A program made the position numbers and the translations under genes. The notes beneath the pieces were generated by a model, which did no database searches, was not told the DNA's origin, and saw only the letters and a program-made list of their open reading frames with translations. A stretch of 64,000 nucleotides of DNA from Spirochaetaceae bacterium (GTDB taxonomy: Bacteria; Spirochaetota; Spirochaetia; SZUA-6; DRHE01), in NCBI GenBank assembly GCA_020353535.1, contig CP070696.1:1821989-1885988 (forward strand), given 5' to 3'. Each line of letters begins with the position of its first letter. Position 1 is the stretch's first letter. This document shows, piece after piece, positions 3-22,534 of this stretch.

Positions 3-998
3 GCCTCCAGCGCGGTTTTCTCTGCCTACTATCTCATGAAACTCTTCCAGGAGGCAGGGTTGCCGGAAGGTGTCATCAATTTCATTCCGGGACCCGGCGC
101 GGAGATAGGGCCGTTGGTAATGAACTCACCTGAGTTGGCGGGCGTGCATTTCACCGGCAGCACCGAAACCTTCAGGCAGATGTGGCAGACTTTAGGCAAG
201 AACATACAACACTACCGTTCGTATCCGAGGATCGTCGGCGAGACCGGTGGAAAGGATTTCATATTCGCCCACCGGAGCACTGACCTACAGGCTCTGGGAG
301 TGGCACTGATCCGGGGGGCTTTTGAGTACCAGGGGCAGAAATGTTCCGCCGTTTCCCGCGCCTATATCCCCCGCGGACTCTGGGAGGATCTCAAGGTCTA
401 TCTGATCGAAGAGTTGAACACAGTAACAGTGGGGGATGTGGAAGATTTCGGTGCTTTCATGAACGCCGTGATCGATAGGACAGCCTTCGACAAGATTTCC
501 ACATATATCGACTACGCGAAGAAAGCCGATCGAGCTTCCATTGTCTACGGCGGCGAGTGTGATGACAGGCGGGGATTTTTCATAAGGCCTGCGGTGGTGC
601 TTACCGACGATCCACACTTTCGGACCATGCAGGAGGAGATTTTCGGTCCGGTACTGACGATATATCTCTACGACGAGGACCGTTATGTCGAAACACTCGA
701 GCTGTGCGACAAGACCTCTCCCTACGCCCTTACCGGAGCCATTTTCGCCCGGGATCGCCAGGCTGTGGCGGTGGCGCAGCAAAAGTTGGAGAACGCGGCA
801 GGAAATTTCTACATCAACGACAAACCCACCGGTGCCGTGGTGGGGCAGCAGCCCTTCGGCGGCGCCCGGGCCAGCGGTACCAACGATAAGGCCGGGAGCC
901 TCTGGAACCTGCTTCGCTGGGCGAGCCCTCGGGCCATTAAGGAGAATTTTGTTCCGTCCCGGGACTATCGCTACCCCTTCATGGAGGCGGAGAGCTAG
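3..998 (+). CDS. pruA: L-glutamate gamma-semialdehyde (1-pyrroline-5-carboxylate) dehydrogenase, ALDH4A1-like; 5' end cut by window edge
   Basis: Frame is open from base 3, with no stop before the first Met at 36. Aldehyde dehydrogenase motifs FTGSTETF and EYQGQKCSA (catalytic Cys). C-terminal VVGQQPFGGARASGTNDKAGS is typical of the PruA/ALDH4A1 clade. Confidence 0.85.
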   Translation, partial: ASSAVFSAYYLMKLFQEAGLPEGVINFIPGPGAEIGPLVMNSPELAGVHFTGSTETFRQMWQTLGKNIQHYRSYPRIVGETGGKDFIFAHRSTDLQALGVALIRGAFEYQGQKCSAVSRAYIPRGLWEDLKVYLIEELNTVTVGDVEDFGAFMNAVIDRTAFDKISTYIDYAKKADRASIVYGGECDDRRGFFIRPAVVLTDDPHFRTMQEEIFGPVLTIYLYDEDRYVETLELCDKTSPYALTGAIFARDRQAVAVAQQKLENAAGNFYINDKPTGAVVGQQPFGGARASGTNDKAGSLWNLLRWASPRAIKENFVPSRDYRYPFMEAES

Positions 999-1038: not shown

Positions 1039-3336
1039 ATGGGGAAGAGCAAAACACTGCAATGGCTTGGGAATGAGGCGACACCCGTCTCTCTGAATGT
1101 GCGAATCCTGGAAACTTCCCCCTGCGGCGTGAACTGCCCGCTGGGGACCAATGTCAAAGCGTATGTCTCCCTGATCGCCGCCGGGCGTTTTCTGGATGCA
1201 CTGGAGGAGATTCGCCGGACCAATCCCTTCCCCGGGATCTGCGGTCGGGTCTGTCATCATCCCTGCGAGGAGCAATGTCTGCGAAAGGATTTTGACGAGG
1301 CCTTGGCCATTGCCGCCCTGAAGCGTTTCGTGGCGGATTACGAGCTGCGTCGCGGAATCATTCCCCGCTTCTCTCCCGCGCGACCGGGGGGTGAGAAGGT
1401 GGCGGTGATAGGTTCGGGACCCGCGGGATTGACTTGCGCGGCCGATCTGGCCCGTCAGGGCTGCCAGGTTACCGTATTCGAGGCCTCTCCCGTTCCAGGG
1501 GGCATGCTATCCACCGGCATTCCCGCCTATCGTCTGCCCCGAGATATCCTCCACTTTGAAATTGAGGCCATTCGAGCCCTGGGTGTGGATATCAAGGTGG
1601 ATACCCGTATCGGGGACAGAATCAGCTTCGACCAGGTTGCCGACAGGCATCGGGCCGTGTTTATCGCCACCGGGGCTCAGCGCCCGGTCCACCTGGAAAT
1701 CCCGGGTGAGGGGGAGGTGCGGCAAGGTTTGATCGATTGGGTTTCGTTGCTGAAAGAGGCGGCTTTGGGCCGAGCGCAGAGACCGGGCAAACGGGTAGTG
1801 GTAGTCGGGGGCGGTGATACCGCAGTGGACAGTGCCCGGGTAGCAACCCGTCTGGGTGCTGAAAGCGTGCGGCTGCTCTACCGGCGTTCCCGGGAACAGA
1901 TGCCGGCTCATCCCGTAGGGGTCAAGGATGCCGAAGCGGAAGGAATCATCTTCTCCTTTCTCGCCACCCCGGTGCGGCTGGTGATCCGGGAGGGTAGATT
2001 GGAAGGGGTGGAGTGCATCCGCCTACGCCTGGGCGGGAAGGATAAAAGCGGCCGCCCGCGCCCGCTGCCGGTGCCGGGATCGGAGTTCCTGGTTCCCTGC
2101 GATGCCCTGATTCCGGCCATCGGGCAGAAGCTGGATAGCTCCTTCCTGGCAGAGGGACATGGCCTGGAGATCACCGAGGAGAATCTCCTCTTCGTGCATG
2201 AGAATACCCTGGAGACCTCCCGGGTCGGGGTATTCGGCGGCGGGGATGCGGTTAGCGGTCCGGCCAGCGTGGTGGAGGCTATCGCCGCGGGACACCGCGC
2301 GGCCAGCTCCATCCTACGCCACCTCCAGGGCTTGCCTCTAAAGGCTGGAGGCGAAGGTGCTCCGCATCATGAGTTGGCCCTTGAGTTACTCCCGCCGGTG
2401 CGCAAGGGCCGCAACCAGAGCCCCCGTCTATCCCTGGAGGAGAGTCGGGAATCTTTCAGGGAAATCGAACAGGGCTTAAGCGAAGCGGAAGCTATCGAAG
2501 AAGCTCAACGCTGTCTGCGCTGCGGACCCTGCCTGGAGTGTCGGATCTGCGTGGGAGTTTGCCAGAGCAAGCAGCTCATCCTTGAACGGGATTCCCGGAG
2601 TGCCGGATCTGGATACTCTATGGAGCACATGCTGTTTCGGCTGCCTCTGGAAACCTGCAGGGAGATCGCTGCCGGGGATAACGTTCCGCTTCGTTACGAT
2701 GGCAGACTCTATCGGGCTTCGGCAGTCACCGTTAAGATCAATGACATTCTCTGCCGGGGCTGCGGAATGTGTGAAGAAACCTGCGATTATAAGGCCATCC
2801 GGGTTTCTTACCGGAGGGACGGTTTTTTTATTGCTCAGGTTGAGGAGGATATGTGCCGTGGCTGTGGCACCTGCGTCTCCGTCTGCCCTACCGGAGCCGT
2901 AGATCAGGGTTTTTTCAGTAGTGACAGGATAATGGGGCAGGTCAAGGAGGTCTTGAGGCCAAAAAAGCAGGAGCTCCCTGTTCTCCTGTTGGCTTGTCGC
3001 TGGAGCGGGGTTGCGCAGATCTTACCTGCCGAAAGGAGAGGGAAACTTGTTGAGCTTATGTGCGTGGGACGTCTAGCAGCGGGAGATCTTCTCCGGATAA
3101 TCGAGCTCGGTGCCGCCGGAGTGCTCATATTGGGCTGTGCAGAGGAGCGTTGCCACTATGGCTTTGGCTGCCGAGTGGCTGAAGACAATCTGCGCCGCCT
3201 CTGCGCGCTGTTGGAGCTGCTGGGCATTCCTGCGGACAGGATTCGGTTGCTTCGGAGTGTGGAGGCTGGATCTGAAGAATTGGCTTTCGAAGTGGAGAGT
3301 TTTATAAGGGAGCTCAACTCCCGAGAGGTTGGTTAG
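1039..3336 (+). CDS. GltD/NfnB-like NAD(P)H:FAD oxidoreductase fused to 2x[4Fe-4S] ferredoxin and a C-terminal MvhD/FlpD-like domain
   Basis: N-terminal Cys cluster (CGVNCP...ICGRVCHHPCEEQC). Two dinucleotide folds (VAVIGSGPAGL, VVVVGGGDTAVD) and GGGDAV...AIAAGHRAA. Ferredoxin motifs CLRCGPCLECRIC, CRGCGMCEETC and CRGCGTCVSVCP. The tail LLLACRWSG...LMCVGR...GVLILGCAEERCHYGFG resembles the methyl-viologen-reducing hydrogenase delta subunit domain. Confidence 0.8.
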   Translation: MGKSKTLQWLGNEATPVSLNVRILETSPCGVNCPLGTNVKAYVSLIAAGRFLDALEEIRRTNPFPGICGRVCHHPCEEQCLRKDFDEALAIAALKRFVADYELRRGIIPRFSPARPGGEKVAVIGSGPAGLTCAADLARQGCQVTVFEASPVPGGMLSTGIPAYRLPRDILHFEIEAIRALGVDIKVDTRIGDRISFDQVADRHRAVFIATGAQRPVHLEIPGEGEVRQGLIDWVSLLKEAALGRAQRPGKRVVVVGGGDTAVDSARVATRLGAESVRLLYRRSREQMPAHPVGVKDAEAEGIIFSFLATPVRLVIREGRLEGVECIRLRLGGKDKSGRPRPLPVPGSEFLVPCDALIPAIGQKLDSSFLAEGHGLEITEENLLFVHENTLETSRVGVFGGGDAVSGPASVVEAIAAGHRAASSILRHLQGLPLKAGGEGAPHHELALELLPPVRKGRNQSPRLSLEESRESFREIEQGLSEAEAIEEAQRCLRCGPCLECRICVGVCQSKQLILERDSRSAGSGYSMEHMLFRLPLETCREIAAGDNVPLRYDGRLYRASAVTVKINDILCRGCGMCEETCDYKAIRVSYRRDGFFIAQVEEDMCRGCGTCVSVCPTGAVDQGFFSSDRIMGQVKEVLRPKKQELPVLLLACRWSGVAQILPAERRGKLVELMCVGRLAAGDLLRIIELGAAGVLILGCAEERCHYGFGCRVAEDNLRRLCALLELLGIPADRIRLLRSVEAGSEELAFEVESFIRELNSREVG

Positions 3337-3341
3337 ACCGG

Positions 3342-4496
3342 ATGGCAGTGATGTTCGATCCAGCCCAACTGAATGAAGAATACGGTATTCCGGTTATTCT
3401 GAAGCACAGCCGGAGGCTCAACCAGCTCTGTTCCGTAGCCGGGGTGAATCCGAATTTTTCTCCGGAGAGGATCGCCCGGTTGGCTGAGGGGAATCCCGAG
3501 CAGCTTGTACAGAGTCCGTTGATCTGGGAGTGTTTGACCTGCGGACTCTGTCGAGAGGTCACGGACGGCCGCGGGGATATGGCGCGCTTCATCCGCGCAG
3601 TCCGCCGCGAGGCGTTGCGGCGGGGCATTGCCGGTTCCGATACCCACGGCGGGATAATGCTGACAGCCCAGCGAATCGATGCCCTTGGTAAGGTGCAAGC
3701 GGACCGCAACGCCTGGATCGCTGGTGAGGAGGATCTAAAAGTGGAGCGCCGCCAGGGTGACACCTTGTACTGGGTGGGGGCTGCCCCTTTCTTAGACTCC
3801 ACCTTTCCCGATCTAGGATCCACGGCTTTGGAATCGGCCCGCGCTGCAATCCGGCTGCTCAATCATCTGGGAATACGACCGGTAGTCCTGGAGCAAGAGC
3901 GCTTTTCCGGCCACGACCTGCTGTGGACCGGAGATCGGGAGGGATTTAGCAGTCTGGCGGCAATGAACATGCAGGCGATCCGGGACAGCGGGGCTAAAAC
4001 CGTGATCGTTTCCTCCCCGGAAGATTGTCATACCCTGAAGATGAGCTACAAGGAGCTGGTAGGGGAATTAGGAGTTGAAGTTCTTCATCTATCAGAGTTT
4101 CTGGCCGATCGGCTGTCCCAGCTCAGCTTCTCCGAGTGGCCGCACCGGATAAGTTACCACGATCCCTGCCGCCTGGGTCGCGGCTTGGGGGTGTACGATG
4201 CGCCCCGGAAGGTGCTGAGAGGGGTACCCGGGCTGGAACTGGTAGAGATGGAGCACTCCCGGGAGATGGCCCGGTGCTGTGGCACTTCCTGCTGGATCAA
4301 CTGTACGCGATATTCCAAACTGATGCAGGTGAGACGTTTGCAGGAGGCTGGAGCGACAGGCGCCGAAGCTCTGGTCACTCCCTGTTCACAATGCGTCCTG
4401 CACTTTCGTTGCGCCACCAGGGCCGAAGCCTGGACCCAGGTGCGAATGGATGTCCGGGACTGGACGGTTTTTCTGGCAGGAGTGTTGCAGGAGTAG
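3342..4496 (+). CDS. HdrD/HdrB-like CCG-domain (Fe-S)-binding protein
   Basis: CLTCGLCREV ferredoxin-like motif plus cysteine-rich CCG-type repeats (SPEDCHTLK; YHDPCRLGRGLG...ARCCGTSC; LVTPCSQC). Starts 5 nt after the upstream stop. Confidence 0.75.
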   Translation: MAVMFDPAQLNEEYGIPVILKHSRRLNQLCSVAGVNPNFSPERIARLAEGNPEQLVQSPLIWECLTCGLCREVTDGRGDMARFIRAVRREALRRGIAGSDTHGGIMLTAQRIDALGKVQADRNAWIAGEEDLKVERRQGDTLYWVGAAPFLDSTFPDLGSTALESARAAIRLLNHLGIRPVVLEQERFSGHDLLWTGDREGFSSLAAMNMQAIRDSGAKTVIVSSPEDCHTLKMSYKELVGELGVEVLHLSEFLADRLSQLSFSEWPHRISYHDPCRLGRGLGVYDAPRKVLRGVPGLELVEMEHSREMARCCGTSCWINCTRYSKLMQVRRLQEAGATGAEALVTPCSQCVLHFRCATRAEAWTQVRMDVRDWTVFLAGVLQE

Positions 4497-4499
4497 GGT

Positions 4500-6581
4500 A
4501 TGAGCCGGATCGAAGAACATCCAATCCTGACAATAGAACCTCGCCGGGATATACCCTTCACCTTCGACGGTAAGAGGTATCTGGCCAAGGAAGGGGAGGT
4601 CATCTCTTCGGCCCTGCTGGCTCAGGGAATCAGTATCCTCGGCCGTCATCACAAGGATGCGGCGCCTCAAGGTATCTTCTGCGCCAATGGCCAATGTGCC
4701 CAGTGCATGGTGATGGCCGACGGCTATCCGGTAAAGGCCTGCCTGACCGTGGTCAAGCCCGGCATGAGTGTAGAGCCCTGTCGGGGGATGCCGGCCATTC
4801 CGGCGGATGATGGGATTCCACAAATGACCGACGTTCCGCTGATCAAGATCCCGGTGCTCATCATCGGAGGCGGTCCGGCGGGGCTTTCGGGTGCCATCGA
4901 GCTGGCCAAGGCGGGGGTCCGCTGCCTCATCGTCGATGATAAGCAGAGGTTGGGGGGAAAGCTCACTCTCCAGACCCACAATTTCTTCGGATCCCGGGGA
5001 GACTGCTACGCCGGTACCCGGGGCACAAACATCGCCCTGCTTTTGGAAGAGGAACTGCGGACCTTTGGGACCGAGCTGGTGCAGACCTGGCTGTCCTCTC
5101 CCGCCGTGGCTATTTTTTCAGACGGCAAGGTGGGCATTGTGAAGCAGGGGCGCTACGTATTGGTAGAGCCGGAGATCCTGCTGGTGGCCTGCGGCGCTCG
5201 TGAAAAGTCCCTGGCTTTCCCCGGCTGGGATCTGCCCGGCGTGTTCGGAGCGGGAGCCTTCCAGACGCTGGTAAATCGGGACTTCGTCCGGCCTGCCGAG
5301 CGCCTCTTTATATGCGGGGGCGGCAACGTTGGTTTGATCGCCGCCTATCATGCCTTACAGGCGGGTGTCGCCGTGGTTGGGCTGGTGGAGGCGCTCCCCG
5401 AGTGCGGCGGGTATAAGGTGCACCTGGACAAGCTGCTGCGACTCGGGGTGCCCGTCTATAACTCCCACACGGTCCTGCGGGCCGAAGGTCAGGAGCACTT
5501 GGAGCGCGTGGTTGTGGGACGGATCGATGATGACTTCCGCCCCGTGCCGGGGGACGAAAAGATCTTCGAAGTGGATACTCTGTTGGTTGCCGTGGGGCTG
5601 GCTCCACTGAATGAGCTATACAAGAAAGCCAGGAAGTACGGGCTGAGGGCATTCGCCGCCGGCGATGCCGAACAGATCGCCGAGGCCAGCGCGGCGATGT
5701 TCAGCGGCCGTATTCAGGGTCGGCGGATACTGAAAGCTCTGGACAGACCAACAATCCTGCCCCGCGAGTGGGAACCCCTCCTGGACACCCTACGAGGCAA
5801 ACCGGGCCGGAAACAGGATCGTTCCCCTCACATCCTTCCCGGAAAGATCTATCCGATTATCCGCTGCCTCCAGGAGATCCCATGTAATCCCTGTACAGAG
5901 CTCTGCCCCAGGCTGGCCATCAGGATTGAAGGAGGTAAATTGACGGGGTGGCCCTTCTTCGAGGGCGAGCAGTGCCTGGGCTGCGCTCGCTGCGTCAGTG
6001 CATGTCCGGGGCTGGCCATCGTTCTGGTGGACGAGAGCTACGATCCTGGGCGGGATCGGGCTCTCCTGATCCTTCCCTTTGAGCTCAGCGACGGCATGCT
6101 GCGACCTGGAAGCCAGGTGATCACCGTGGGACCGGCTGGGGAGCCCGTCGGTCGGGGTACCGTGGTTGCCACCCGTGATGCGCCCAGCCAGGATCATCGC
6201 CGCCTGATCCTCCTGGAAGTGCCCTTTGCTGATCGACTCGGTGTGGCCGGTTTCAGCTCGGGCGAGCCGCAAAAGGCTGCTCCTGCTGCGGTATCGGCCG
6301 AGGATCGGGAGGCGATCATTTGCCGCTGCGAGCGGGTCACCCGGGGGGAGATCGTGGACCTGATCCAAGGAGGATATCGGGATATCAATCAGCTCAAGGC
6401 AGCCCTGCGGGTTGGAATGGGAGCCTGCGGCGGCAAGACCTGTCAGGATCTTATCTTGCGCTTGTTCCAAGAGGAGGGTGTGAATTTAGGGGAGGTGACA
6501 CCCTTGGTAGAGCGGCCGCTGGAGATGGAGATCCCCCTGCGGGTGTTCGCCGGAGCCGTCGATGTGGAGACTGGGGAATAA
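4500..6581 (+). CDS. Multi-domain FAD/NAD oxidoreductase, HcnA+HcnB / OoxA / proline dehydrogenase alpha-like, with extra Fe-S domains
   Basis: N-terminal 2Fe-2S-type segment (FCANGQCAQCMV...C). GxGxxG folds (VLIIGGGPAGLSGA, FICGGGNVGL). Ferredoxin-like CNPCTELCP and CLGCARCVSACPG. BFD-like CRCERVTRGEI...CGGKTC near the C-terminus. Confidence 0.75.
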   Translation: MSRIEEHPILTIEPRRDIPFTFDGKRYLAKEGEVISSALLAQGISILGRHHKDAAPQGIFCANGQCAQCMVMADGYPVKACLTVVKPGMSVEPCRGMPAIPADDGIPQMTDVPLIKIPVLIIGGGPAGLSGAIELAKAGVRCLIVDDKQRLGGKLTLQTHNFFGSRGDCYAGTRGTNIALLLEEELRTFGTELVQTWLSSPAVAIFSDGKVGIVKQGRYVLVEPEILLVACGAREKSLAFPGWDLPGVFGAGAFQTLVNRDFVRPAERLFICGGGNVGLIAAYHALQAGVAVVGLVEALPECGGYKVHLDKLLRLGVPVYNSHTVLRAEGQEHLERVVVGRIDDDFRPVPGDEKIFEVDTLLVAVGLAPLNELYKKARKYGLRAFAAGDAEQIAEASAAMFSGRIQGRRILKALDRPTILPREWEPLLDTLRGKPGRKQDRSPHILPGKIYPIIRCLQEIPCNPCTELCPRLAIRIEGGKLTGWPFFEGEQCLGCARCVSACPGLAIVLVDESYDPGRDRALLILPFELSDGMLRPGSQVITVGPAGEPVGRGTVVATRDAPSQDHRRLILLEVPFADRLGVAGFSSGEPQKAAPAAVSAEDREAIICRCERVTRGEIVDLIQGGYRDINQLKAALRVGMGACGGKTCQDLILRLFQEEGVNLGEVTPLVERPLEMEIPLRVFAGAVDVETGE

Positions 6582-6583
6582 CC

Positions 6584-7750
6584 ATGGGCGGGAGCTATGA
6601 TGCCATTGTAGTAGGCGGGGGAAGCGTGGGTGTTCCTACAGCCTTTTACCTGACCCAGGAAGGGCAAAAGGTTCTCGTGGTGGAATCGGAACCGACCGTG
6701 GGTCAGGGGCAAAACAAGGCGGCCATTGGAGGAGTGCGGGCAACCCATTCCGATGCGGCCAAAATCCTGATCTGCCAGGAGAGCTTGCGTATCTTTAAAG
6801 AATGGCAGCAGACCTACGGTCAAAACATAGGCTGGAAAAAGGGTGGGTACTGCTTCGTCGCCTATACCCCTCGGGAAGAGGGTATCCTCAAGGATCTGCT
6901 TCCGGTTCAAAAGTCCTTTGGTCTGAACATCGATTGGCAGGATGCCCAGAGCATCCGTGAGGTGATTCCGGGCATTCAGCCGACCGGATTGCTGGGCGGT
7001 ACCTTTTCCCCCGAGGATGGTCAGGTATCGCCGCTGCTGGCCGTCGATGCCATGTTCCGGGAGTCCCGCAGTCGCGGCTGCACCTATCATTTCAGAGAAA
7101 AGGTGACAGGTTTGCACATCCGGGCTGAGCGTGTCCGGGGCGTTCGTACCGACAAGGACAGCTATAACGCCCCAGTTGTGGTCAACGCCGCCGGAGCCCA
7201 GGCTCGGGAGATCGGCGTCCTGGCCGGATTGGAGGTTCCTGTGATTCCGGACAGCCACGAAGCCGGGATATCCGCCCCGATGGCGCAATTCCTCGGGCCA
7301 CTGGTGGTGGATCTCCGACCAGGACCGGAGGGAAAGACGGCCAATTTCTACTTCGCCCAGACCAAGGAAGGCCCGATCATCTTCTGCTATACTCCTAAGA
7401 ATATCTTCGTGGGAACCGATCGGGAACCGACGTCGGAGTTCCTGCCTATCGTCTCGCGGCGGTTGATCGACCTGCTGCCGCGTTTGAAGAACGTACTGGT
7501 TCGCCGCATCTGGCGGGGGCTCTACCCTATGACACCGGATGGTCTGCCGATCTGTGATCACGTGCGCCAGGTGGACGGCTTGTACCTGGCTGTAGGAATG
7601 TGCGGTCAGGGTTTTATGATGGGACCGGGAATTGCCCGCAACCTGGTTCATCTGATCACCCACGGCAGGCCCCTGATCGAGCCATCGATCTTCAGCGCCT
7701 TAAGCTTCTACCGGGATTTCGGGACCGCTAAAAAAGAAAAACTAAAATAG
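6584..7750 (+). CDS. FAD-dependent DAO-family dehydrogenase (SoxB/OoxB/HcnC/proline dehydrogenase beta-like)
   Basis: ATG at 6584 gives MGGSYDAIVVGGGSVG (a classic FAD fold at the N-terminus), 2 nt after the upstream stop. The ORF-track start at 6320 would overlap the upstream gene by about 260 nt and adds low-complexity R/G-rich sequence. Confidence 0.8.
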   Translation: MGGSYDAIVVGGGSVGVPTAFYLTQEGQKVLVVESEPTVGQGQNKAAIGGVRATHSDAAKILICQESLRIFKEWQQTYGQNIGWKKGGYCFVAYTPREEGILKDLLPVQKSFGLNIDWQDAQSIREVIPGIQPTGLLGGTFSPEDGQVSPLLAVDAMFRESRSRGCTYHFREKVTGLHIRAERVRGVRTDKDSYNAPVVVNAAGAQAREIGVLAGLEVPVIPDSHEAGISAPMAQFLGPLVVDLRPGPEGKTANFYFAQTKEGPIIFCYTPKNIFVGTDREPTSEFLPIVSRRLIDLLPRLKNVLVRRIWRGLYPMTPDGLPICDHVRQVDGLYLAVGMCGQGFMMGPGIARNLVHLITHGRPLIEPSIFSALSFYRDFGTAKKEKLK

Positions 7751-7790: not shown

Positions 7791-8645
7791 ATGTTTACTT
7801 TTCCCTGCCCTTGTACTACACTCCACATGCTTAAAATGAAAGGAACACCCGGTTTGGTGAAGAGTATAGGCTTTGTCGGCGGGGGAAATATGGGTTTTGC
7901 CCTGGCCAGGACGATTACTGAACGCTTTCCCGGCGCAGCAATAAACGTATTCGATATCAACGGAGATAGACTGGCTCTTTTTGAGCAAGAGCTGCCGGAG
8001 GTACGGACTGTCGACGGTCCACGAGAACTAGCAGAGGCATCAGAAGTGATGTTTCTGTCTGTCAAACCTCAGGACATTCAGCCTGTGCTGGAAGCGATTT
8101 GGGACACCGAGCGGCTGTTGATCTCGATCGCCGCCGGGGTGCCCATCAAACGGATCGAAGGGGTGTGCAGCCGGGCTCGAGTGGTGCGGGTGATGCCCAA
8201 CACGCCATGTCTGGTCGGGGCCATGGCCGCGGGTTATGCCTTTGGATCCAGGATCCGGCCACCGGACCGGGAGCTGGTTAGGCAGCTGCTGGGCGCGGCG
8301 GGCTATGCCGCGGAGGTGGAGGAACAGCTGCTGGATGGGGTGACCGGCTTAAGCGGATCCGGACCGGCCTTTGTCGCCCGCCTGATCGAGGCCTTCATCG
8401 CAGCGGGCAAGGGGCTCGGCCTGGAGCCCGAGGTGGCGCGAAATCTGTCGATCCAGACCTTTTTGGGAACGGCCAAATTGCTGGCCGATACCGGCATGGA
8501 TCCTCAGAAGCTTGTTGACCTGGTCAGCTCACCCAACGGCACGACCGTAGCCGGGCTGCAGGTACTGGAGACTTCGGATTACGCGCAGGTGATATCCGGG
8601 ACGATTCAAGCCGCTGCGGTGCGCAGCAGGGAGTTAGGCCGATGA
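7791..8645 (+). CDS. proC: Pyrroline-5-carboxylate reductase
   Basis: IGFVGGGNMG NADPH fold, MPNTPCLVG, SGSGPAF and SSPNGTT motifs. The true start may be the ATG at 7827 or 7836 (MKGTPGLVKSIGFVGGGNMG). Confidence 0.9.
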   Translation: MFTFPCPCTTLHMLKMKGTPGLVKSIGFVGGGNMGFALARTITERFPGAAINVFDINGDRLALFEQELPEVRTVDGPRELAEASEVMFLSVKPQDIQPVLEAIWDTERLLISIAAGVPIKRIEGVCSRARVVRVMPNTPCLVGAMAAGYAFGSRIRPPDRELVRQLLGAAGYAAEVEEQLLDGVTGLSGSGPAFVARLIEAFIAAGKGLGLEPEVARNLSIQTFLGTAKLLADTGMDPQKLVDLVSSPNGTTVAGLQVLETSDYAQVISGTIQAAAVRSRELGR

Positions 8646-9934
8646 GTGTACTGGAGCAAGCTCGGGCGGCTAAGAGGGCCAGCTTTCGCCTGGCCGGCGT
8701 CTCTACGGAACTAAAAAACCGAGCCCTGGCGCGCATCGCCGAGGCCTTGGATCGGGATCGCGCACGCATTCTGGAGGAGAATCGAAAGGACCAGGAACAG
8801 GCCAGGAAAACCGCTCTCAAGGAGTCCCTGTTCAAGCGTCTGGTGCTGACGGATGCCAAGATCGACCAGATGGTGGAGAGCGTGCGGGATGTGGAGCGGC
8901 TGGAGGACCCGGTGGGGAAAACGCTGCTTGTGCGGGAGCTGGATCAAGGCCTGGTGCTTCGCAAAGCCACGGTGCCGATCGGGGTGATCGGGGTGATCTT
9001 CGAATCCCGTCCGGATGCCCTGGTGCAGATCTCTACCCTTTGCCTGAAGTCGGGGAACGTGGTTATCCTCAAAGGGGGTTCCGAAGCCCTGAACTCCAAT
9101 CGCATCCTCTTCCAGTTGATCCGGGCAGCGGCGGAAGCCTCGGATCCGGTGTTCAAGGAAACCCTTCACCTGGTGGAGACCCGGGAACAGATCGGGGAGC
9201 TACTTGCCCTGGACCGCTGGATCGACCTGATGATCCCCCGCGGCTCCAATGAGCTGGTGCGCCGTATTCAGGAGAACACGAAGATCCCCGTTCTGGGGCA
9301 TGCGGAGGGGATCTGCCATCTGTACGTGGACCGGGACGCAGACCTCGATATGGCCGTGGAGGTGGCCTACGACGCCAAGTGCCAGTATCCAGCGGTCTGC
9401 AACGCCATCGAAACCCTGCTTGTTCATTGCGCCGTGGCGGAAGAGTACCTGCCCCGGCTGGCCGAACGCCTGAAGGTGGTGGAGCTGCGCGGGGATGAGC
9501 GGACCCGCAGCATCATACCAGCCGCGGCTGCCACGGAGGAAGACTGGCGTACGGAGTACAACGACCTGATTCTCTCGATCCGGGTGGTGGAAAGTCAGGC
9601 GGAGGCGGTGGACCATATCAACACCTACGGCAGCCACCACACAGACGCCATCGTAACCCGGGACCAGAGTGCGGCCCGGCGCTTTCTCTCCGACGTGGAT
9701 TCCAGCTCGGCAATGTGGAACTGCTCGACCCGCTTCGCCGATGGCTTCCGCTACGGCCTTGGTGCGGAGGTGGGGATCTCCACGGGAAAGATCCATGCTC
9801 GAGGTCCCGTGGGATTGGAAGGTCTGACCAGTACCAAGTACATCCTCGAGGGGGGCGGACAGGTCGTGGCTGACTACGTCGGCGTCGATAAGCGGTTCAC
9901 CCACAGGGATCTTAGTCTCGGGGATCGGCATTGA
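8642..9934 (+). CDS. proA: Glutamate-5-semialdehyde dehydrogenase (gamma-glutamyl phosphate reductase)
   Basis: Full-length ProA-like sequence (IFESRPDA, ILKGGSEA, HTDAIVT, catalytic-Cys region NASTRFADG-like CSTRFADGF). ATGA start/stop overlap with proC. Confidence 0.92.
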   Translation: MSVLEQARAAKRASFRLAGVSTELKNRALARIAEALDRDRARILEENRKDQEQARKTALKESLFKRLVLTDAKIDQMVESVRDVERLEDPVGKTLLVRELDQGLVLRKATVPIGVIGVIFESRPDALVQISTLCLKSGNVVILKGGSEALNSNRILFQLIRAAAEASDPVFKETLHLVETREQIGELLALDRWIDLMIPRGSNELVRRIQENTKIPVLGHAEGICHLYVDRDADLDMAVEVAYDAKCQYPAVCNAIETLLVHCAVAEEYLPRLAERLKVVELRGDERTRSIIPAAAATEEDWRTEYNDLILSIRVVESQAEAVDHINTYGSHHTDAIVTRDQSAARRFLSDVDSSSAMWNCSTRFADGFRYGLGAEVGISTGKIHARGPVGLEGLTSTKYILEGGGQVVADYVGVDKRFTHRDLSLGDRH

Positions 9935-10698
9935 GGCTTTGCATCAAGATCGGCACCGCTCTGATCAGCCGGGGTAACCGCCTGAACTACCGCTGGCTCA
10001 AAGGCAAGGTACGGGAGATCGCCGCGCTGCAGAAGCGGGGCAATGAGATTGTGATCGTCAGCTCCGGAGCGGTAGCCGCGGGCATGGAGATCGCCAGAGA
10101 GACGATTCGGCCCACGGAAACTCTCAAGCTGCAGATGATGTCCGGAATGGGCCAGATCCGGCTGATGAAGTACTACAAGGACTACTTCAAAGCCGAGGGC
10201 ATCTGCATAGCCCAGATACTTCTCACTCATCATAACTTTGCCTCTAGAAACGAAGAGGGCACGATCCGGGAGATCATGAAAGCGTATCTGCGAGCCGGAG
10301 TAATCCCCATCGTGAACGAGAATGACATGATCAACAAGGAGGAGGTGGAGTTCAAGCCCGTATTCACGGACAACGACATCCTCGCCGCCCTGGTTGCGGT
10401 TCGAGTCGGGGTGGATTTGCTTGTGATTCTGACTGACGTAGATGGGCTGTACCAAGGTAATCCTAAGCGGGATCGCCGGGCGAAACTCGTCGAGGAGGTG
10501 GAAGCCATCGACCGTGCCGTCGAGCAGATGGCGGCCCGGGAAACCAATCCCCTCGGCCTGGGCGGGATGGCTTCCAAAGTCCAGGCTGCCAAGATGGTGG
10601 CTTCCCACGGAATTGACACCATCGTTGCAAACGGACGCTATTCCCTGGACCAGGTGCTCGCTAAGGAAGTCCCCAGAACCCGCTTTCACGCCGGTTGA
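9931..10698 (+). CDS. proB: Glutamate 5-kinase, short form without PUA domain
   Basis: Amino-acid kinase fold (IVIVSSGAVAAG, IPIVNENDMI, DNDILAALVA, TDVDGLY, GGMASK). TTG start overlapping the proA stop. At 255 aa there is no room for a PUA domain. Confidence 0.9.
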   Translation: MRLCIKIGTALISRGNRLNYRWLKGKVREIAALQKRGNEIVIVSSGAVAAGMEIARETIRPTETLKLQMMSGMGQIRLMKYYKDYFKAEGICIAQILLTHHNFASRNEEGTIREIMKAYLRAGVIPIVNENDMINKEEVEFKPVFTDNDILAALVAVRVGVDLLVILTDVDGLYQGNPKRDRRAKLVEEVEAIDRAVEQMAARETNPLGLGGMASKVQAAKMVASHGIDTIVANGRYSLDQVLAKEVPRTRFHAG

Positions 10699-10788: not shown

Positions 10789-13158
10789 ATGTCACGAAAT
10801 GATAGACAGGGATTACAAAAACGACTCGACCAGGTCGAAGCCCTGGTTGAGCAGGAGCGATCCAAGTTAAAACAGCTCTTCGAACACATCCCTCTGCCAG
10901 CCTACCATGTTTCCCTCGACGGTTTGATTGTGGACGTCAATTCCACCGCCTTGAACTTCTTGAAAGTCGCAGACAAGCAGGATTTGATCGGTAAGCCCCT
11001 TTTGACCGCCATCTACGCCCCCGCTTCCCGTGCCAAGGCCAAGAAAGTCTTGGAAAAATGGAAGCACACGGGCAGTTTGCGGAATGAGGAGCTCCAGGTT
11101 CAGACAGCGGACGGAGAGGTTCGAGATGTCCTGCTCAACGTCGATACGATCCTCGATCAAGAAGGAAAGCCGCAGTACAGCATTTCCGTGCATCTGGATA
11201 TTACCGAGCGAAAACGTGTTGAACAGGCGTTGCGGCGGGAAGAGGAGCGGTCCAGGATGTATCTGGATATGGCCGGGGTGATGCTGTTGGCTCTGGATCG
11301 GGAGGGGCATGTAGTACTGGCCAATCCGAAAGCTTGCTCGGTGCTCGAGGGGGAAGAAGCGGACATCCTAGGCAAGGATTGGTTCGTCAGTTTCATCCCG
11401 GAGCAGGTGCGTACGGAAGTTGAGAGAGTATTTCAGCAGCTGATGAGAGGAGCCATGGAACCCGCTGAATACTTCGAGAACCAGATCGTATCGCTCAAGG
11501 GAAACATACGCTGGATCGCCTGGCACAACACGCTGGTCAAGTCCAGAGACGGGGCGATTCTCGGAACCTTCAGCTCAGGAGAAGACATCACCGAACGCAG
11601 GCATACGGCACAGGCGCTGCGGGAAAGCGAGGAGCGGTTCAGGGAGCTGACCGACACGTTGCCCCAGGTCGTGTTTGAGGTAGACATTCGGGCAACGATC
11701 ACGTATGCCAACAGGCGCGCCTTTGAGCTTTTTGGCTATGTCGAAGCGGATTTAAAACGGGGATTAAATACCCTCGAGATGATCGCTGCTCAGGATCGCG
11801 AGCGAGCTGGGGCAAATATCCGGCGTGTACTGCAAGGCGAGAAATCTGAATCTACCGAGTATCTAGCCCAGAGAAAGGATGGAAGCACCTTCCCGGTCAT
11901 GATCCATTCCACTCGCATCGTTCGAGACGGGGAAGTGGTGGGTCTGCGGGGGATCATCGTGGATCTCTCAGAGCACAAAGCGGCGGAGAAGGCTCTGAGG
12001 GAGAGCGAGGAGGTTCTACGGCAGTCCCAGAAGATGGAGGCGATCGGCAGGCTTGCCGGCGGTATCGCCCATGATTTCAACAACCTCCTTACGACTATCC
12101 TCGGATATGCAGAGATGTTGCTTTGCGGCGGTACCATGAGTGACGAATCCTTGGAATCGATTCGGGAAATAAGCAGATCTGCCCAGAGGGCCGCCTCGTT
12201 GACCCAACAGCTGCTGGCCTACAGCCGTAAACAGGTACTCCGCCCTGAGGAGCTCAACATCAACCAGCTGATAGCGAATTTGACAAATATGCTTGGTCGA
12301 CTGATTCACGAGAATATCCACCTGACTACGGTTTTGGATCCGCAGATCGGTCGGATCAAAGCGGATCCCGCGCAGTTGGAGCAGGTGATCATCAACCTGG
12401 CGATCAATGCCAGGGACTCCATGCCCGAAGGCGGGAAACTGACTATCGAGACTTGCGATATCATGCTGGATGAAAGCTACTGCACGCTTCATCCTGAAGT
12501 GAAGCCGGGCGGGTATGTTATGGTCGCGGTTACCGATACCGGTTGCGGAATTGACAAAGAGACTCAGAAACAGATCTTTGAACCCTTCTTCACCACCAAG
12601 GTACCTGGAAAAGGAACAGGCTTGGGTTTAGCCACCGTGTTCGGAACGGTCAAGCAGAGCAACGGTTATGTCTATGCGTACAGTGAACCCGGGCTGGGAA
12701 GTACTTTCAAGATCTACCTTCCCGTAGTGCAGACAAGGGGACCGAGAGGTCAACGCCGTGCCGAGGCGCGTAGTGGATACAGGACCGACAGGAGGATCCT
12801 GCTTGTCGAAGACGATGAGGCCGTGAGAGAACTGGTCGTTCGGGTACTGGAGAAGATCGGGTACACCCTAGTATCGGCCTCCAGCGGGGAGGAAGCTCTG
12901 GGCCTGCTCGATAGGTCCGAGTATGGTGATATTGATCTGCTCATCAGCGACGTGATCATGCCCGGTATCGGCGGTAAAGTACTGGCGGAGCGGCTTCAGG
13001 CGCGTATTCCCGCGCTTAAGGTGCTGTATATTTCAGGGTATCCGGACGAGACCGTTGTGCAACACGGCGTGCTGGATGAGGGTGTGGCCTATCTGCAGAA
13101 GCCATTTTCACCGACGGCCGTCATTGAGAAGGTCCGGCAGATCCTGGCGGAGGATTAG
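10789..13158 (+). CDS. Multi-PAS hybrid sensor histidine kinase with C-terminal receiver
   Basis: Three PAS-like repeats (ITERKR/ITERRH linkers), HisKA box [11 protein letters not shown], HATPase N/G boxes ([25 protein letters not shown]), and a receiver with ILLVEDDE...[14 protein letters not shown]...KP. Confidence 0.85.
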
Positions 13159-14566: not shown

Positions 14567-14905
14567 TCAGCGACTTTTTTTCCACTCGACCAACGCCCTG
14601 GCTTCAGAAACCAGATCGCCGACATCCATACCGTATTTTGCCAGGAGGTCATCCGGTTTTCCCGACTCAGCGAAGACATCCTTGATACCCATGGGGACCA
14701 CTCTGGCTCCTGCAGAATTCGCGTTCACTTCTGAAATCGCGCTGTAAAGACCTCCGATTATATTATGATCTTCATATGTGATTGCCACTTTGGTTTTGGC
14801 AAGCACGCTGGCAATGGTTTCTCTATCCAAGGGTTTTATGGTATGCACATCCAGCACTGTAGCCTTTATTCCGATAGCATTCAATTCTCGTGCCGCCTGC
14901 AGCTG
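14567..14905 (-). pseudogene. Transketolase C-terminal-subunit remnant (only about the last 110 codons)
   Basis: Translation ..QLQAARELNAIGIKATVLDVHTIKPLD...ITYEDHNIIGGL...GIKDVFAESGKPDDLLAKYG matches the extreme C-terminal domain of transketolase/DXS-type enzymes. The N-terminal roughly two thirds of the subunit is absent, and homology stops at about 14905. Confidence 0.7.
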
Positions 14906-15288
14906 AAAGGGGCGGCAAACCTGCGGTCCATACCGCAGCCTGGCAGTACTCCGTGTTCTCGCCTTCCGAGCATCAGGAACTGGCTTTGGAGTTCGTAAAA
15001 TGGTTCAACAGCAAGGAGAGCGACTTCGAACAGGCAAAGAGGTACAAATCGACTCCGCGCTGGAACGACAACTGGAATAGCGAGCCCTTCGTGTCCGATC
15101 CCTATACAAAGCAGTTCCTGGCCCTCCTTCCCTACGGTCAGCCCTATCCCAAGCATCTGGCCTTACCGGGCGTTATGGAGGCTTTGGGCGCGGCGATCCA
15201 GAAGATCCTGCATGACGAGATGGACGCAGCGGCGGCCATCGCCGAGGCGGAGAGAAAGGCTAATCAGGCTATCGCCGCCGTCAAGTAA
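14890..15288 (+). pseudogene. CUT1-family sugar ABC substrate-binding protein remnant (C-terminal approx 115-130 aa only)
   Basis: AAWQYSVFSPSEHQELALEFVKWFNSKE...EALGAAIQKILHDEMDAAAAIAEAERKANQAI is a typical SBP C-terminus. There is no signal peptide and no N-terminal lobe. It abuts the opposite-strand transketolase remnant. Confidence 0.65.
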
Positions 15289-15314
15289 CCGGAACACAGG
15301 ATTACAATCCAAAT

Positions 15315-15341
15315 CCCTCCGCTCCCCTCAGGAGTGGAGGG
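15315..15341 (+). promoter_or_regulatory. Intercistronic stem-loop after the binding-protein (remnant) gene
   Basis: CCCTCCGCTCC-cctca-GGAGTGGAGGG forms an 11-bp stem (one G.U) with a 5-nt loop. No U-tract follows, so it is more likely an mRNA-stabilising hairpin than a terminator. Confidence 0.5.
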
Positions 15342-15421
15342 GAATCTTTGACGGTCCGCTTCGTTCCTGCGCGTCAAAAAAAAATATTTTCGACTTTTAT
15401 CGCAATGTGGTAGTGTGAGGG

Positions 15422-16318
15422 TTGATGACCAGATTCTTTACAAAAGTCAAGAAGCGCCGCTGGCACTACGCCTACCTGTTTGTCTCTCCGGTCCTGATTT
15501 TTTTCGGACTTTTCAGAGTGTATCCGTCGATTCAGACTCTGATATTCAGCTTCTTTGAAGTCAACATCGTGGCCAAGAAGTACGAGTGGATCGGTCTGCA
15601 GAACTTCGTGCTTCTGTTGCAGGAGAGCGACTTCATTCGGGCGATCGCCAATACCTTCATCTACACCTTCTATATCGTGGTTTTCAGCGTGTTCATCGGT
15701 ATGGTGCTGGCCTCGATGTTTACCTCCAAGATGAAGCTGGCCGGACTGTTCAAGGCCGTGTACTTCGTTCCTTTTATCACCGCTACTGTAGCGGCGGCTG
15801 TGGTCTGGAGCTTTCTCTACGATCCCAAGTTCGGCTTGTTCAACATGATCTTGAAATTACTCGGATTGCCAATAAGGCATTGGCTGACCTCCTCCAAGGA
15901 AGCCCTGGGCAGCATCATCATCTTCAGCATCTGGAAGTACCTGGGCTACAACATGGTCATCTTCATCGCCGGATTGCAGAACATCCCCGACGCCTTTTAT
16001 GAGGCCGCCACCATTGACGGGGCGGGACCGCTGACAAAATTCTTCCGCATCACCGTACCGCTGCTGGCCCCTACGATCGTGTTCGTTGTGATCTACAACA
16101 CGATCCTCGCTTTAAAAGTGTTTGATCAGGTATTTGTGTTGACAGCCGGCGGCCCGGCAGGATCGAGCACCGTGGTGGTACTGGAGTTGTACGAGATGGC
16201 CTTTTTGCACTACCGCTTCGGTTATGCAGCCTCTATGGCCTTTGTCCTGTTTATGTTCATCATGATCATCACAGTCCTCCAGTACACGTTCAGCAGGCGG
16301 TGGGAGGTGACCTACTGA
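15422..16318 (+). CDS. Sugar ABC transporter permease (MalF/UgpA-like, CUT1)
   Basis: Six predicted TM segments and the EAA-type loop (FYEAATIDGAGPLTKFFRITVPLL). Confidence 0.9.
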   Translation: MMTRFFTKVKKRRWHYAYLFVSPVLIFFGLFRVYPSIQTLIFSFFEVNIVAKKYEWIGLQNFVLLLQESDFIRAIANTFIYTFYIVVFSVFIGMVLASMFTSKMKLAGLFKAVYFVPFITATVAAAVVWSFLYDPKFGLFNMILKLLGLPIRHWLTSSKEALGSIIIFSIWKYLGYNMVIFIAGLQNIPDAFYEAATIDGAGPLTKFFRITVPLLAPTIVFVVIYNTILALKVFDQVFVLTAGGPAGSSTVVVLELYEMAFLHYRFGYAASMAFVLFMFIMIITVLQYTFSRRWEVTY

Positions 16319-17154
16319 TGAGCCTCGAAACCGCAGGCAGGATCACGGCTAGATCCATCCTTTATATCGTCCTGGCGGCCTTCGGTATTCTGATGGTCAT
16401 GCCCTTCTACTGGATGATCGTCACCTCCTTCCAGATCCCGGAGAATCTCATAGCCTTCCCGCCGAAGTGGTGGCCCAACCCCCCGACTTTGGAGCACTTC
16501 GAAGCGGCGATCGACCAGGCGCCTTTTCTGCTGTACTACAGAAACAGCCTCATCGTTGCAGCGATTTCCGTATCCTGCTCGGTAATCTTTGGGCTGTTCG
16601 CCGGCTACGCCTTTGCGGTGTATCAATTTCCCCTGCAGAATTTCCTCTTCATTCTCATCTTGAGCACGCTGATGGTTCCCATCCAGGTTACCTCGGTTTC
16701 ACTGTATATTCTCATGGCTCGATTACGCTGGATCGACACATTTCCGGGAATCCTGGCGCCCAACTTTGCCAGCGCCTTCGGCGTGTTTTTCATGCGCCAG
16801 ACCATCAAGGGGATGCCCGGTGATCTAATCGACGCCGCCCGCATCGACGGGGCTGGGGAGATCCGTATTGTGGCTACCATCATCGCTCCTCTGGTCAAGA
16901 GCGTCATGGCCACGGTGGCGCTGATTCTGTTCATCGACTCCTGGAACGATTTTCTCTGGCCGGTGATCGTCATAAATTCGGAGAGGCTACGCACGCTGCC
17001 CGTCGGAATCGCCTTCTTCAAAGATCCCTACAGGATCAGCTTCGGGCCGCTGATGGCGGCCGCCTCAATCGCCACAGTGCCAACGATCCTGGTCTATCTG
17101 CTGGTGCAGAAATTTATTATCAAGGGTATCGCCACCACCGGCTTGAAGTTCTAG
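16318..17154 (+). CDS. Sugar ABC transporter permease (MalG/UgpE-like, CUT1)
   Basis: ATG at 16318 overlaps the upstream stop (ATGA). EAA loop DAARIDGAGEIRIVATIIAPL. Confidence 0.9.
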   Translation: MSLETAGRITARSILYIVLAAFGILMVMPFYWMIVTSFQIPENLIAFPPKWWPNPPTLEHFEAAIDQAPFLLYYRNSLIVAAISVSCSVIFGLFAGYAFAVYQFPLQNFLFILILSTLMVPIQVTSVSLYILMARLRWIDTFPGILAPNFASAFGVFFMRQTIKGMPGDLIDAARIDGAGEIRIVATIIAPLVKSVMATVALILFIDSWNDFLWPVIVINSERLRTLPVGIAFFKDPYRISFGPLMAAASIATVPTILVYLLVQKFIIKGIATTGLKF

Positions 17155-17200
17155 CCTCCTGAAGTCTCCGGCAAATCTTTGATTGATGAAAGGAATATAT

Positions 17201-18445: not shown

Positions 18446-18455
18446 CAGGTCAATC

Positions 18456-20345: not shown

Positions 20346-20357
20346 ATCGAGGGAGAA

Positions 20358-20927: not shown

Positions 20928-20935
20928 ACTCCTGT

Positions 20936-22511: not shown

Positions 22512-22534
22512 GGCGGGGATGGGGGAATATTCTT

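Follow-up and report, generated by a model that had tools for sequence, protein, structure and literature searches.

A four-gene block in a Spirochaetaceae genome joins an archaeal-type proline dehydrogenase to Nfn-, Hdr- and Mvh-type parts: a candidate electron-bifurcating complex

A stretch of 64,000 nucleotides from a Spirochaetaceae bacterium (GenBank assembly GCA_020353535.1, contig CP070696.1, positions 1,821,989 to 1,885,988 of the forward strand; hereafter the window, whose own coordinates are used below) carries a block of four genes, g1 to g4. In this block a putative heteromeric proline dehydrogenase (PDH) of the archaeal family, g3-g4, is preceded by an FAD-NADPH module with ferredoxin-type and MvhD domains, g1, and by an iron-sulfur (Fe-S) protein of the CCG type, g2. 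We propose that the four products make up a soluble complex of about 243 kDa that links the couple of proline and pyrroline-5-carboxylate (P5C) to NADP(H) and ferredoxin by flavin-based electron bifurcation or confurcation, and we put the probability of this reading at roughly 55%.

Proline and hydroxyproline, which derive from collagen, peptides and osmolytes, are abundant in anoxic habitats. To our knowledge, the quinone-requiring PutA/PRODH route is the only well-understood way of oxidizing proline, and it has never been settled which acceptor the archaeal 'dye-linked' proline dehydrogenases naturally use. If the proposal is true, it could explain how quinone-free anaerobes oxidize proline. 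It would also add amino acids, as a class of their own, to the substrates of flavin-based electron bifurcation; the substrates given in a 2022 survey of Bfu enzymes are hydrogen peroxide, pyruvate, CO, aldehydes, aryl-CoA thioesters, NADP+, F420, formate and quinones, with no amino acids among them. In addition, hundreds of operons annotated as 'sarcosine oxidase / heterodisulfide reductase / glutamate synthase-like' would gain an annotation, and the occurrence of one core on three different modules would amount to a natural experiment in building bifurcating enzymes from parts.

Parts of the block

The block consists of four co-directional open reading frames (ORFs) on the + strand between pruA and proC-proA-proB, separated by gaps of 5 nt (g1-g2), 3 nt (g2-g3) and 2 nt (g3-g4). 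A first-pass annotation, made from the letters of the same DNA, had described this arrangement, and the ORF coordinates and the NCBIfam assignments of the flanking genes bear it out. The genes are as follows.

1039..3336, + strand: g1, 765 aa, 83 kDa; NfnL/GltD-type module with 2x[4Fe-4S] and MvhD/FlpD
3342..4496, + strand: g2, 384 aa, 43 kDa; soluble HdrD/EtfD-like Fe-S protein
4500..6581, + strand: g3, 693 aa, 75 kDa; SoxA/PH1363-type alpha subunit with fused Fe-S domains
6584..7750, + strand: g4, 388 aa, 42 kDa; DAO-family FAD beta (catalytic) subunit

The summed mass is 243 kDa, and together the four proteins hold invariant Cys sets for about 11 Fe-S sites and three flavin folds. No transmembrane (TM) segment was found in any of them, and a membrane anchor or quinone link was rejected on the ground that g1-g4 have no hydrophobic segment of the TM type. 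The Pfam matches given below lie above curated cut-offs, save a weak Fer4 match in g3, and the families that the first-pass annotation had led us to expect were matched in the four proteins. As a side observation, g2 and g3 share a reading frame, with only a stop codon and one codon between them (3342-6581).

The dehydrogenase half is the most readily placed. The g4 product matches Pfam DAO (E-value 8e-63), and its residues 6-372 align with residues 7-366 of PH1364, the beta subunit of the Pyrococcus horikoshii L-proline dehydrogenase (1y56_B), at an E-value of 1.3e-50. The next matches in the Protein Data Bank (PDB) are far weaker, namely dimethylglycine dehydrogenase (1e-25) and SoxB (3e-18), and glycine oxidase is also poorer. 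The g3 product matches Fer2_4, Pyr_redox_2 and Fer2_BFD. In an alignment of 25 homologs, it has the Fer2_4 [2Fe-2S] cysteines C61, C66, C69 and C81, an invariant FAD fold (GGGPAG, 123-128) and a second fold of the NAD(H) type (GGGNVG, 273-278, with invariant E297). Two [4Fe-4S] motifs (C456-C469 and C492-C502) and a BFD-type [2Fe-2S] site (C608, C610, C643, C648) complete its set. Its PDB matches by phmmer are 2gag_A (2e-21) and 1y56_A (2e-13); its AF2 (AlphaFold2) model, with a predicted local distance difference test score (pLDDT) of 78, retrieves SoxA (3e-24) and 1y56_A (E-value 1.4e-22, template modelling score 0.70 on target) in Foldseek. By sequence and predicted fold, g3 is an alpha subunit of the SoxA/PH1363 type, and the g3-g4 pair would belong to the archaeal heteromeric PDH family. 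The alpha/beta pair that the first-pass annotation saw in the last two genes, a DAO-family FAD subunit with a 2Fe-2S alpha subunit, is thus upheld by the Pfam, 1y56_B and 1y56_A matches.

For g1, the Pfam matches are Fer4_20, Pyr_redox_2, a Fer4 dicluster (565-620) and FlpD/MvhD (667-760, E-value 3.4e-14); an HdrA-type C-terminal 2x[4Fe-4S] domain spans residues 565-620 and an MvhD/FlpD [2Fe-2S] domain residues 653-760. Residues 27-503 align with NfnA of the Caldicellulosiruptor NfnABC (9bov_A, 403 bits) in identical segment order. The matches to NfnL subunits are weaker (4ylf_B, 297 bits; 5jca_L, 292 bits) and permuted, the 'EEAQRCLxC' segment being N-terminal in NfnL subunits and C-terminal in g1 and NfnA. 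Like NfnL and GltD, g1 has a second Rossmann fold of the NADPH type (GGGDTA...YRRS). Its last 200 residues match the HdrA2 profile NF040770 (profile positions 566-769, E-value 1.8e-36); HdrA models cover residues 559-760 only, and the flavin part is of the GltD/NfnL type, not the thioredoxin-reductase-like FAD type of HdrA. Of the 31 cysteines, 24 are invariant in 14 orthologs: 12 in the NfnL-type part, 8 in two CxxCxxCxxxC motifs and 4 in the MvhD domain (C653, C675, C700, C705). These Pfam, NCBIfam and PDB matches agree with the earlier description of a GltD/NfnB-like FAD and NAD(P)H module with two ferredoxin clusters and an MvhD/FlpD domain, and they mark g1 as a fusion of the 'HdrL-MvhD' type. 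'HdrL', a fusion of Hdr and glutamate synthase parts co-located with MvhD in Desulfobacterium autotrophicum, was described but never characterized (PMC2702500).

The g2 product has a Pfam CCG match in a single stretch (271-356, E-value 5e-20). In an alignment of 31 homologs, C30, C64, C67 and C70 are invariant and form one [4Fe-4S] site; the second CCG domain is intact (C276-X35-C312C313G-X34-C348xxC351), the first is Cys-less, and C317, C321 and C357 are further invariant cysteines. HdrB and HdrD have two CCG and two ferredoxin-type [4Fe-4S] motifs, and g2 keeps one of each, so the earlier view of an HdrB/HdrD-like CCG protein is right about the CCG domain, with the correction that g2 is not a full HdrB or HdrD. 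The best Foldseek match of its AF2 model (pLDDT 90.6) is Mycobacterium smegmatis EtfD (9ojn, E-value 3.9e-13, template modelling score 0.75), which is also its sole PDB sequence match; LutA and HdrB follow in Foldseek, and NCBIfam gives weak matches to TfrB, DsrK, TmcB and HmcF. Distant HdrD homologs, 35-45% identical to g2, are ordinary two-motif HdrD proteins that usually have a g1-like gene on their 5' side and no g3-g4. From this it follows that the g1-g2 unit is a generic module, recruited by the lineage that carries the g1-g4 block.

Conservation, neighbours and other redox modules

The order g1-g2-g3-g4 was found in 12 distinct loci, with g2 identities of 47-81%; they come from Spirochaetota, Lentisphaerota, Chitinivibrionales and unassigned metagenome contigs. 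About 70 clusters, at 47% identity or more, make up the g2 subfamily without the first ferredoxin motif, and every locus recovered for it has the order g1-g2-g3-g4. Overlaps of g1 and g2 and the 3-nt gap between g2 and g3 are repeatedly kept across loci (the gap, for example, in L004, L006 and L008), and the identities of the four proteins co-vary over 15-19 loci (Spearman rho 0.82-0.95). The juxtaposition is confirmed as real and conserved, not a matter of chance; the synteny of g1-g2 with g3-g4 expected by the first-pass annotation extends across several phyla. The closest genomes are metagenome-assembled genomes of uncultured Spirochaetaceae with about 80% protein identity.

The genes that flank the block in the window are as follows.

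36..998, + strand: 3' part of pruA (L-glutamate gamma-semialdehyde/P5C dehydrogenase), TIGR01236; its 5' end lies beyond the window start
7791-8645, + strand: proC, TIGR00112, 233 bits against a cutoff of 197 (NCBIfam equivalog)
8642-9934, + strand: proA, NF001221, 552 bits (NCBIfam equivalog, above cut-off)
9931-10698, + strand: proB, TIGR01027, 223 bits (NCBIfam equivalog, above cut-off)

The partial pruA product scores 480 bits over positions 216-532 of the TIGR01236 profile, and proC starts 40 nt downstream of g4. A scan for terminators and promoters gave nothing above chance, with no terminator-like site at any junction from pruA to proB; the eight genes pruA-g1-g2-g3-g4-proC-proA-proB may therefore be transcribed together.

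Among the neighbours, PruA is conserved most. It stands immediately upstream in five distinct loci of the type described here (type I), with 71-90% identity, and adjoins g3-g4 in 12 further genomes; in L008 there is a full-length ortholog (72% identity; 798 bits against a P5C-dehydrogenase equivalog cutoff of 613.6). The adjacency of proC-proA-proB is kept only in the closest relative, L002. In L004 and L005 the block stands beside trans-4-hydroxy-L-proline dehydratase HypD (profile score 1337 bits, cutoff 1100) and its activase. HypD yields P5C, and ProC and ProA/ProB act on or produce P5C. In L008 the block lies beside a gene of the proline-racemase/T3LHyp-dehydratase family and one of the OCD family, with an Asp/Glu-racemase gene nearby. 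This neighbourhood mirrors, in its proline-racemase-family and OCD genes, the PDH cluster of Thermococcus litoralis, where both PDH types occur with a proline-racemase family member, an OCD-type Pyr2C reductase and P5C-handling genes. The neighbours PruA, HypD, ProR-family/OCD and ProC/A/B therefore make L-proline/P5C the best-supported couple for the predicted g3-g4 dehydrogenase.

L004 has further genes of note around its block (5262-7672 and 14686-21140; also in L005): an aldehyde:ferredoxin oxidoreductase (AOR) with a ThiS-like gene, the HypD and activase genes, and a hydantoinase A/B pair. The pruA of L004 is reduced to a fragment of 104 aa. It is a speculation of ours that the AOR might replace PruA there and supply reduced ferredoxin.

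The g3 family is large, with 7540 proteins at an E-value of 1e-10 or better among the candidates scored and at least 584 species-level genomes. The 80 best species-level g3-g4 loci were sorted by the genes directly upstream of g3, with the following result.

g1/g2-type module upstream of g3: 7 of 80 loci
NuoF, NuoE, Fer2_4/Fer4 protein, g1-like and HdrD-like proteins upstream of g3: 3 of 80 loci
NuoE, NuoF and a 649-aa Fer2_4/2xFer4/FlpD protein upstream of g3: 12 of 80 loci
649-aa Fer2_4/2xFer4/FlpD protein alone upstream of g3: 2 of 80 loci
Archaeal Pyr_redox_2/Fer4/FlpD fusion of about 890 aa upstream of g3: 7 of 80 loci
pruA only near g3-g4: 12 of 80 loci
No detectable module near g3-g4: about 37 of 80 loci, several of them on contigs that end just upstream of g3

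A redox module thus lies directly upstream of g3-g4 in at least 31 of the 80 loci, and Pfam found the FlpD/MvhD domain in one representative of each module kind. In short, the core is recurrently joined to three kinds of bifurcation-type module: NfnL-MvhD with HdrD, NuoEF/Bfu-like with MvhD, and archaeal HdrA-like fusions.

The NuoF/NuoE pair occurs in 15 of the 80 loci and also in L091 and L092, and its hosts include Bacillota/Syntrophomonadaceae, Myxococcota and Planctomycetota. The loci with the NuoE/NuoF pair are L091, L092, L098, L100, L105, L106, L115, L122, L123, L125, L126, L130, L132, L134, L146, L153 and L168. Their NuoF-like proteins have an additional [2Fe-2S] domain at the N-terminus and a Fer4 domain at the C-terminus, both typical of bifurcating BfuB/HydB, and NuoEF with g3-g4 would be a Bfu-type enzyme with an amino acid as the third substrate. 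The C-terminal 260 or so residues of the 649-aa protein (X649; L092 7049-8998) have neither a Pfam match nor a Cys motif. Homology of this part to g2 was rejected (hhalign 3.5%), and the likeness of the last 30 or so residues is not evidence for it; it may be a degenerate, cluster-less adaptor of the CCG fold.

The archaeal fusion, from Thermoplasmata and Methanomassiliicoccales (L093, L095, L096, L104, L114, L120, L135 and L136), contains a Fer4 dicluster and a g2-like C-terminal domain (hhalign 98%) with a degenerate CCG motif. This g2-like domain is fused to the upstream protein, not to g3.

We consider it possible, with odds somewhat below even, that g3-g4 is the substrate module of a widespread and unrecognized class of bifurcating or confurcating enzymes, with P5C/proline as their high-potential couple, that would have been assembled on at least three occasions. 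Such a class would account for the way in which quinone-free fermenters and archaea oxidize proline or turn P5C into an energy-conserving sink for electrons, and it would identify the natural electron acceptor of the dye-linked archaeal enzymes. As to the loci in which no module was detected, they indicate that the core can work with unlinked partners. A conserved unlinked partner was sought by clustering the neighbours of module-less g3-g4 pairs and no candidate was retained, the only recurrent genes being those for ABC transporters, PruA, GntR regulators and an oxaloacetate-decarboxylase-like protein.

Proposed mechanism and alternatives

The E0' of the P5C/proline couple is -123 mV at pH 7.5 (Becker and Thomas 2001, as quoted in PMC7642206), compared with about -320 mV for NAD(P)H. 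On the quoted value, oxidation of proline by NAD(P)+ alone is uphill by about 200 mV, and proline therefore cannot reduce NAD(P)+ unaided, which agrees with the first-pass annotation in calling this reaction unfavourable. Since unaided reduction of NAD(P)+ is closed to a block that also has no membrane or quinone part, flavin-based confurcation is the most likely chemistry. The CoM-S-S-CoB couple, at -140 mV, lies close to P5C/proline (PMC9304861). P5C/proline would therefore fit the high-potential role usual in flavin-based bifurcation, with NAD(P)H donating at mid-potential and ferredoxin accepting at low potential.

In the proposed mechanism, g1-g4 would form one soluble complex of about 243 kDa per protomer, in which g4 with g3 would act as an archaeal-type heteromeric PDH interconverting L-proline and P5C. 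By way of g2, the CCG protein, and the MvhD domain in g1, the Fe-S chain of g3 would be connected to two further parts of g1, its NfnL-type FAD-NADP(H) site and its ferredoxin-type clusters. The reaction we favour would be proline + reduced ferredoxin + 2 NAD(P)+ <-> P5C + oxidized ferredoxin + 2 NAD(P)H. By taking P5C on to glutamate, PruA would draw the reaction towards oxidation; the reverse, NADPH-driven bifurcation to ferredoxin and P5C, would also be possible. We infer complex formation, the electron path, the ferredoxin partner, the bifurcating flavin, if there is one (the FAD of g1 or that of g3), and the direction from these parts. The NAD(H)-type site of g3 may or may not be redox-active and the CCG site of g2 may be a wire or a thiol/disulfide site. 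ProC beside a catabolic dehydrogenase could mean that the block works in the reductive direction, towards proline, or that there is a proline/P5C cycle. A bolder corollary is that ProC and the complex could run such a cycle together, with Nfn-type transhydrogenation as the net result.

Several observations weigh against this proposal. The FAD module of g1 is most like the NfnL-like domain of NfnA, and in NfnABC the FAD of that domain is a non-bifurcating NADPH entry site, bifurcation taking place at the FMN core of BfuBC. No such NuoEF/BfuBC core (Complex1_51K, 2Fe-2S_thioredx) was found among the scanned window ORFs. The idea that GltD/NfnB-type flavins and Hdr/MvhD modules are building blocks of bifurcating complexes therefore stands as far as the presence of the parts goes, and is weakened by the likeness of the g1 FAD to an entry site. 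Moreover, g2 keeps one CCG cluster, and EtfD, its closest structure, is an HdrD-like, membrane-anchored and quinone-linked protein that oxidizes electron-transfer flavoprotein (ETF) without bifurcation. No module was detected at about 37 of the 80 g3-g4 loci, and 12 more have pruA only. The genes proC-proA-proB follow g4 here, and a proC-like gene (34-36% identical) comes, independently, directly after g4 in five NuoEF-type Bacillota loci (L115, L123, L125, L126 and L146). Finally, shared ancestry alone also gives co-divergence of the kind seen among the four proteins. In sum, bifurcation is plausible but unproven.

One alternative is a non-bifurcating chain, in which the block is an NADPH-dependent P5C reductase, or a dye-type PDH with an unlinked acceptor, and g1-g2 serve as wire and NADPH entry with no part for ferredoxin. 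The g1 flavin module, the EtfD likeness of g2, the lack of a BfuBC core among the scanned window ORFs, the adjoining proC, proA and proB, and the many module-less g3-g4 pairs all speak for it. We nevertheless regard it as unlikely. Run towards proline oxidation it would meet the same uphill step of about 200 mV, going by the quoted potential, with NAD(P)+ alone; run as an NADPH:P5C reductase it would duplicate the ProC encoded 40 nt downstream and lose about 200 mV despite some 11 clusters and three flavins. The HdrA-type ferredoxin and MvhD domains of g1, invariant in 14 orthologs, would be without a role in a two-substrate enzyme, and a BfuBC-type core is present in the sister architectures.

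It is less probable still that the block is an Hdr-like thiol/disulfide enzyme, in which the CCG cluster of g2 reduces a disulfide with electrons from proline, NADPH or both. The five canonical CCG cysteines are invariant in the 31 homologs of g2; its weak NCBIfam matches are to TfrB, DsrK, TmcB and HmcF, and catalytic subunits with a single CCG motif, such as DsrK, do exist. A disulfide near -140 mV would also be roughly isopotential with proline/P5C. Set against this, no gene for a DsrC-, lipoate-protein- or thioredoxin-like carrier is conserved beside the block, and HdrB-type chemistry uses two non-cubane clusters where g2 has one motif. The matching C-terminal domain is Cys-less in the NuoEF-type relatives, and its CCG motif is degenerate in the archaeal fusion; these losses suggest that the g2-type domain serves as an adaptor or wire and not as a conserved site of catalysis.

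About as improbable is a different substrate, with g3-g4 being a D-proline/D-hydroxyproline dehydrogenase, an opine/sarcosine-type oxidase or an HcnABC-like glycine dehydrogenase. The alpha/beta architecture is shared among these families, HcnABC, OoxAB and LhpBEF included; none of the curated NCBIfam models reaches its cutoff for g3 or g4, and racemase genes of the proline and Asp/Glu families lie near the block in L008. But of the solved structures PH1364 is by far the closest to g4 (1e-50, the others 1e-25 or weaker), the conserved neighbour PruA is a P5C-specific equivalog, and HypD, ProC and ProA/ProB converge on P5C, so that the neighbours fit P5C metabolism rather than the settings peculiar to HcnABC (glycine), OoxAB (opines) or LhpBEF (Hyp epimerase, DHDPS-type deaminase and KGSA dehydrogenase). 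Pfam found no GCV_T/folate domain of the sarcosine type in g3, and no DHDPS-type deaminase of the hydroxyproline pathway is among the called neighbours of the block loci. The HcnABC, opine oxidase and D-hydroxyproline dehydrogenase readings were set aside on this context and on the PH1364 match.

Least probable of all is that a generic NADPH-dependent HdrL-MvhD/HdrD unit (g1-g2) and a self-sufficient PDH (g3-g4) are mere neighbours: pairs of g1-like and HdrD-like genes without g3-g4 do occur in Chloroflexota, Zixibacteria, Cloacimonadota, KSB1 and others, and g3-g4 is found without g1-g2, but the g2 subfamily without the first ferredoxin motif (at least 47% identity) occurs only beside g3 (12 of 12 distinct loci), the 3-nt gap and the g1/g2 overlaps are conserved, the four proteins co-diverge, and three otherwise different module types place an FlpD domain, alone or together with a CCG-like one, just upstream of g3.

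The first-pass annotation saw no PutA-type PRODH in the window, and a scan of 38 window ORFs likewise gave no Pro_dh match, with two ORFs of at least 300 aa in an ABC-transporter operon lying outside the scan. The remaining scanned genes are uninformative on respiration, Rnf or hydrogenase, and we infer an anaerobic lifestyle of the host from its relatives and enzyme types. On the same strand, 90 nt past proB, starts a 789-aa hybrid sensor with PAS, histidine-kinase and receiver domains (10789-13158). At 22445-26739, a 549-aa fusion of a Rieske [2Fe-2S] domain and a Pyr_redox_2 ferredoxin reductase (Reductase_C) adjoins a Zn-alcohol dehydrogenase, past which lies a 536-aa protein without a Pfam match. 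At 38488-42090 stands a class-V (NifS-like) aminotransferase, extended at its N-terminus by about 240 aa, and after it come a small ORF and a radical-SAM protein. An ORF of 584 aa at 47411-49165 matches no Pfam family at an E-value of 1e-8 or better. The sole Rfam/ARAGORN match in the 64 kb is a tRNA-Met (CAT) at 54539-54611.

Comparison with known systems

By their defining features, the HdrABC, NfnSL and BfuABC enzymes do not include the block. HdrABC-MvhAGD and HdrA2B2C2 have in common with it an MvhD domain, an HdrA-type 2x[4Fe-4S] domain and a CCG protein; HdrABC has the thioredoxin-reductase-like flavin domain of HdrA, which the block lacks, and two CCG and two [4Fe-4S] motifs (in HdrB/C or HdrD) where g2 has one of each. 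HdrABC also belongs to CoM/CoB metabolism, whereas the partner in the block is a predicted amino-acid dehydrogenase and no CoM/CoB metabolism is involved. NfnSL (NfnAB; 5JCA) and the NfnA of NfnABC (9BOV, 9N5U, 8OH5) share with g1 25-510 the FAD, the NADPH-type Rossmann fold and the Fer4_20 clusters. The order in NfnA is permuted as in g1, but the C-terminus of g1 is an HdrA-type ferredoxin domain with MvhD and that of NfnA is Fdh-like. The NfnS small subunit (FNR-like FAD and [2Fe-2S], NAD(H)) was not found in the block or the scanned window ORFs; g3 has a [2Fe-2S]/FAD/NAD(H)-type arrangement but another fold. The architecture of g1 is matched by 'HdrL'-MvhD of D. autotrophicum. Mycobacterial EtfD (9OJN) is the closest structure to g2, which differs in having no TM segment and in being paired with an NADPH/ferredoxin-type module. 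CCG proteins such as EtfD, LutA and GlpC relay electrons from flavoprotein dehydrogenases and are not heterodisulfide reducers.

Two further systems are alike in function rather than in descent. The lactate dehydrogenase-EtfAB of Acetobacterium woodii is reported (Weghoff et al. 2015) to oxidize a substrate whose couple lies well above NAD+ by co-oxidizing reduced ferredoxin (confurcation), an answer to the thermodynamic problem that proline also poses; it is a functional analogue, not a homologue, built from Etf and a GlcD-type lactate dehydrogenase with the bifurcating flavin in EtfB. PutA/PRODH shares the path from proline through P5C to glutamate with PruA, but its TIM-barrel fold is unrelated and it depends on a quinone.

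The closest relatives of the dehydrogenase half are the archaeal PDHs, which, like the block, occur in anaerobes. In the alpha4beta4 enzyme of P. horikoshii (PH1363/PH1364, 1Y56), the beta subunit is homologous to g4 over its full length and the alpha subunit to g3 by sequence and fold; in Thermococcus profundus PdhA/B/F/X (alpha-beta-gamma-delta), the Fe-S parts are separate subunits, whereas g3 fuses Fer2_4, two [4Fe-4S] and BFD. No NfnL-MvhD and CCG proteins have been reported for archaeal PDHs, and the block has both ahead of g3-g4. The first-pass annotation was therefore right that the first two genes add new parts, with the qualification that g3 already carries fused Fe-S domains, putative equivalents of the separate archaeal subunits. 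It knew of no description of such a complex, and we likewise found no published description of the block or of its sister architectures in the full-text literature, subscription journals lying outside that coverage. What is new is the combination of an archaeal-type PDH with known Nfn, Hdr and Mvh parts.

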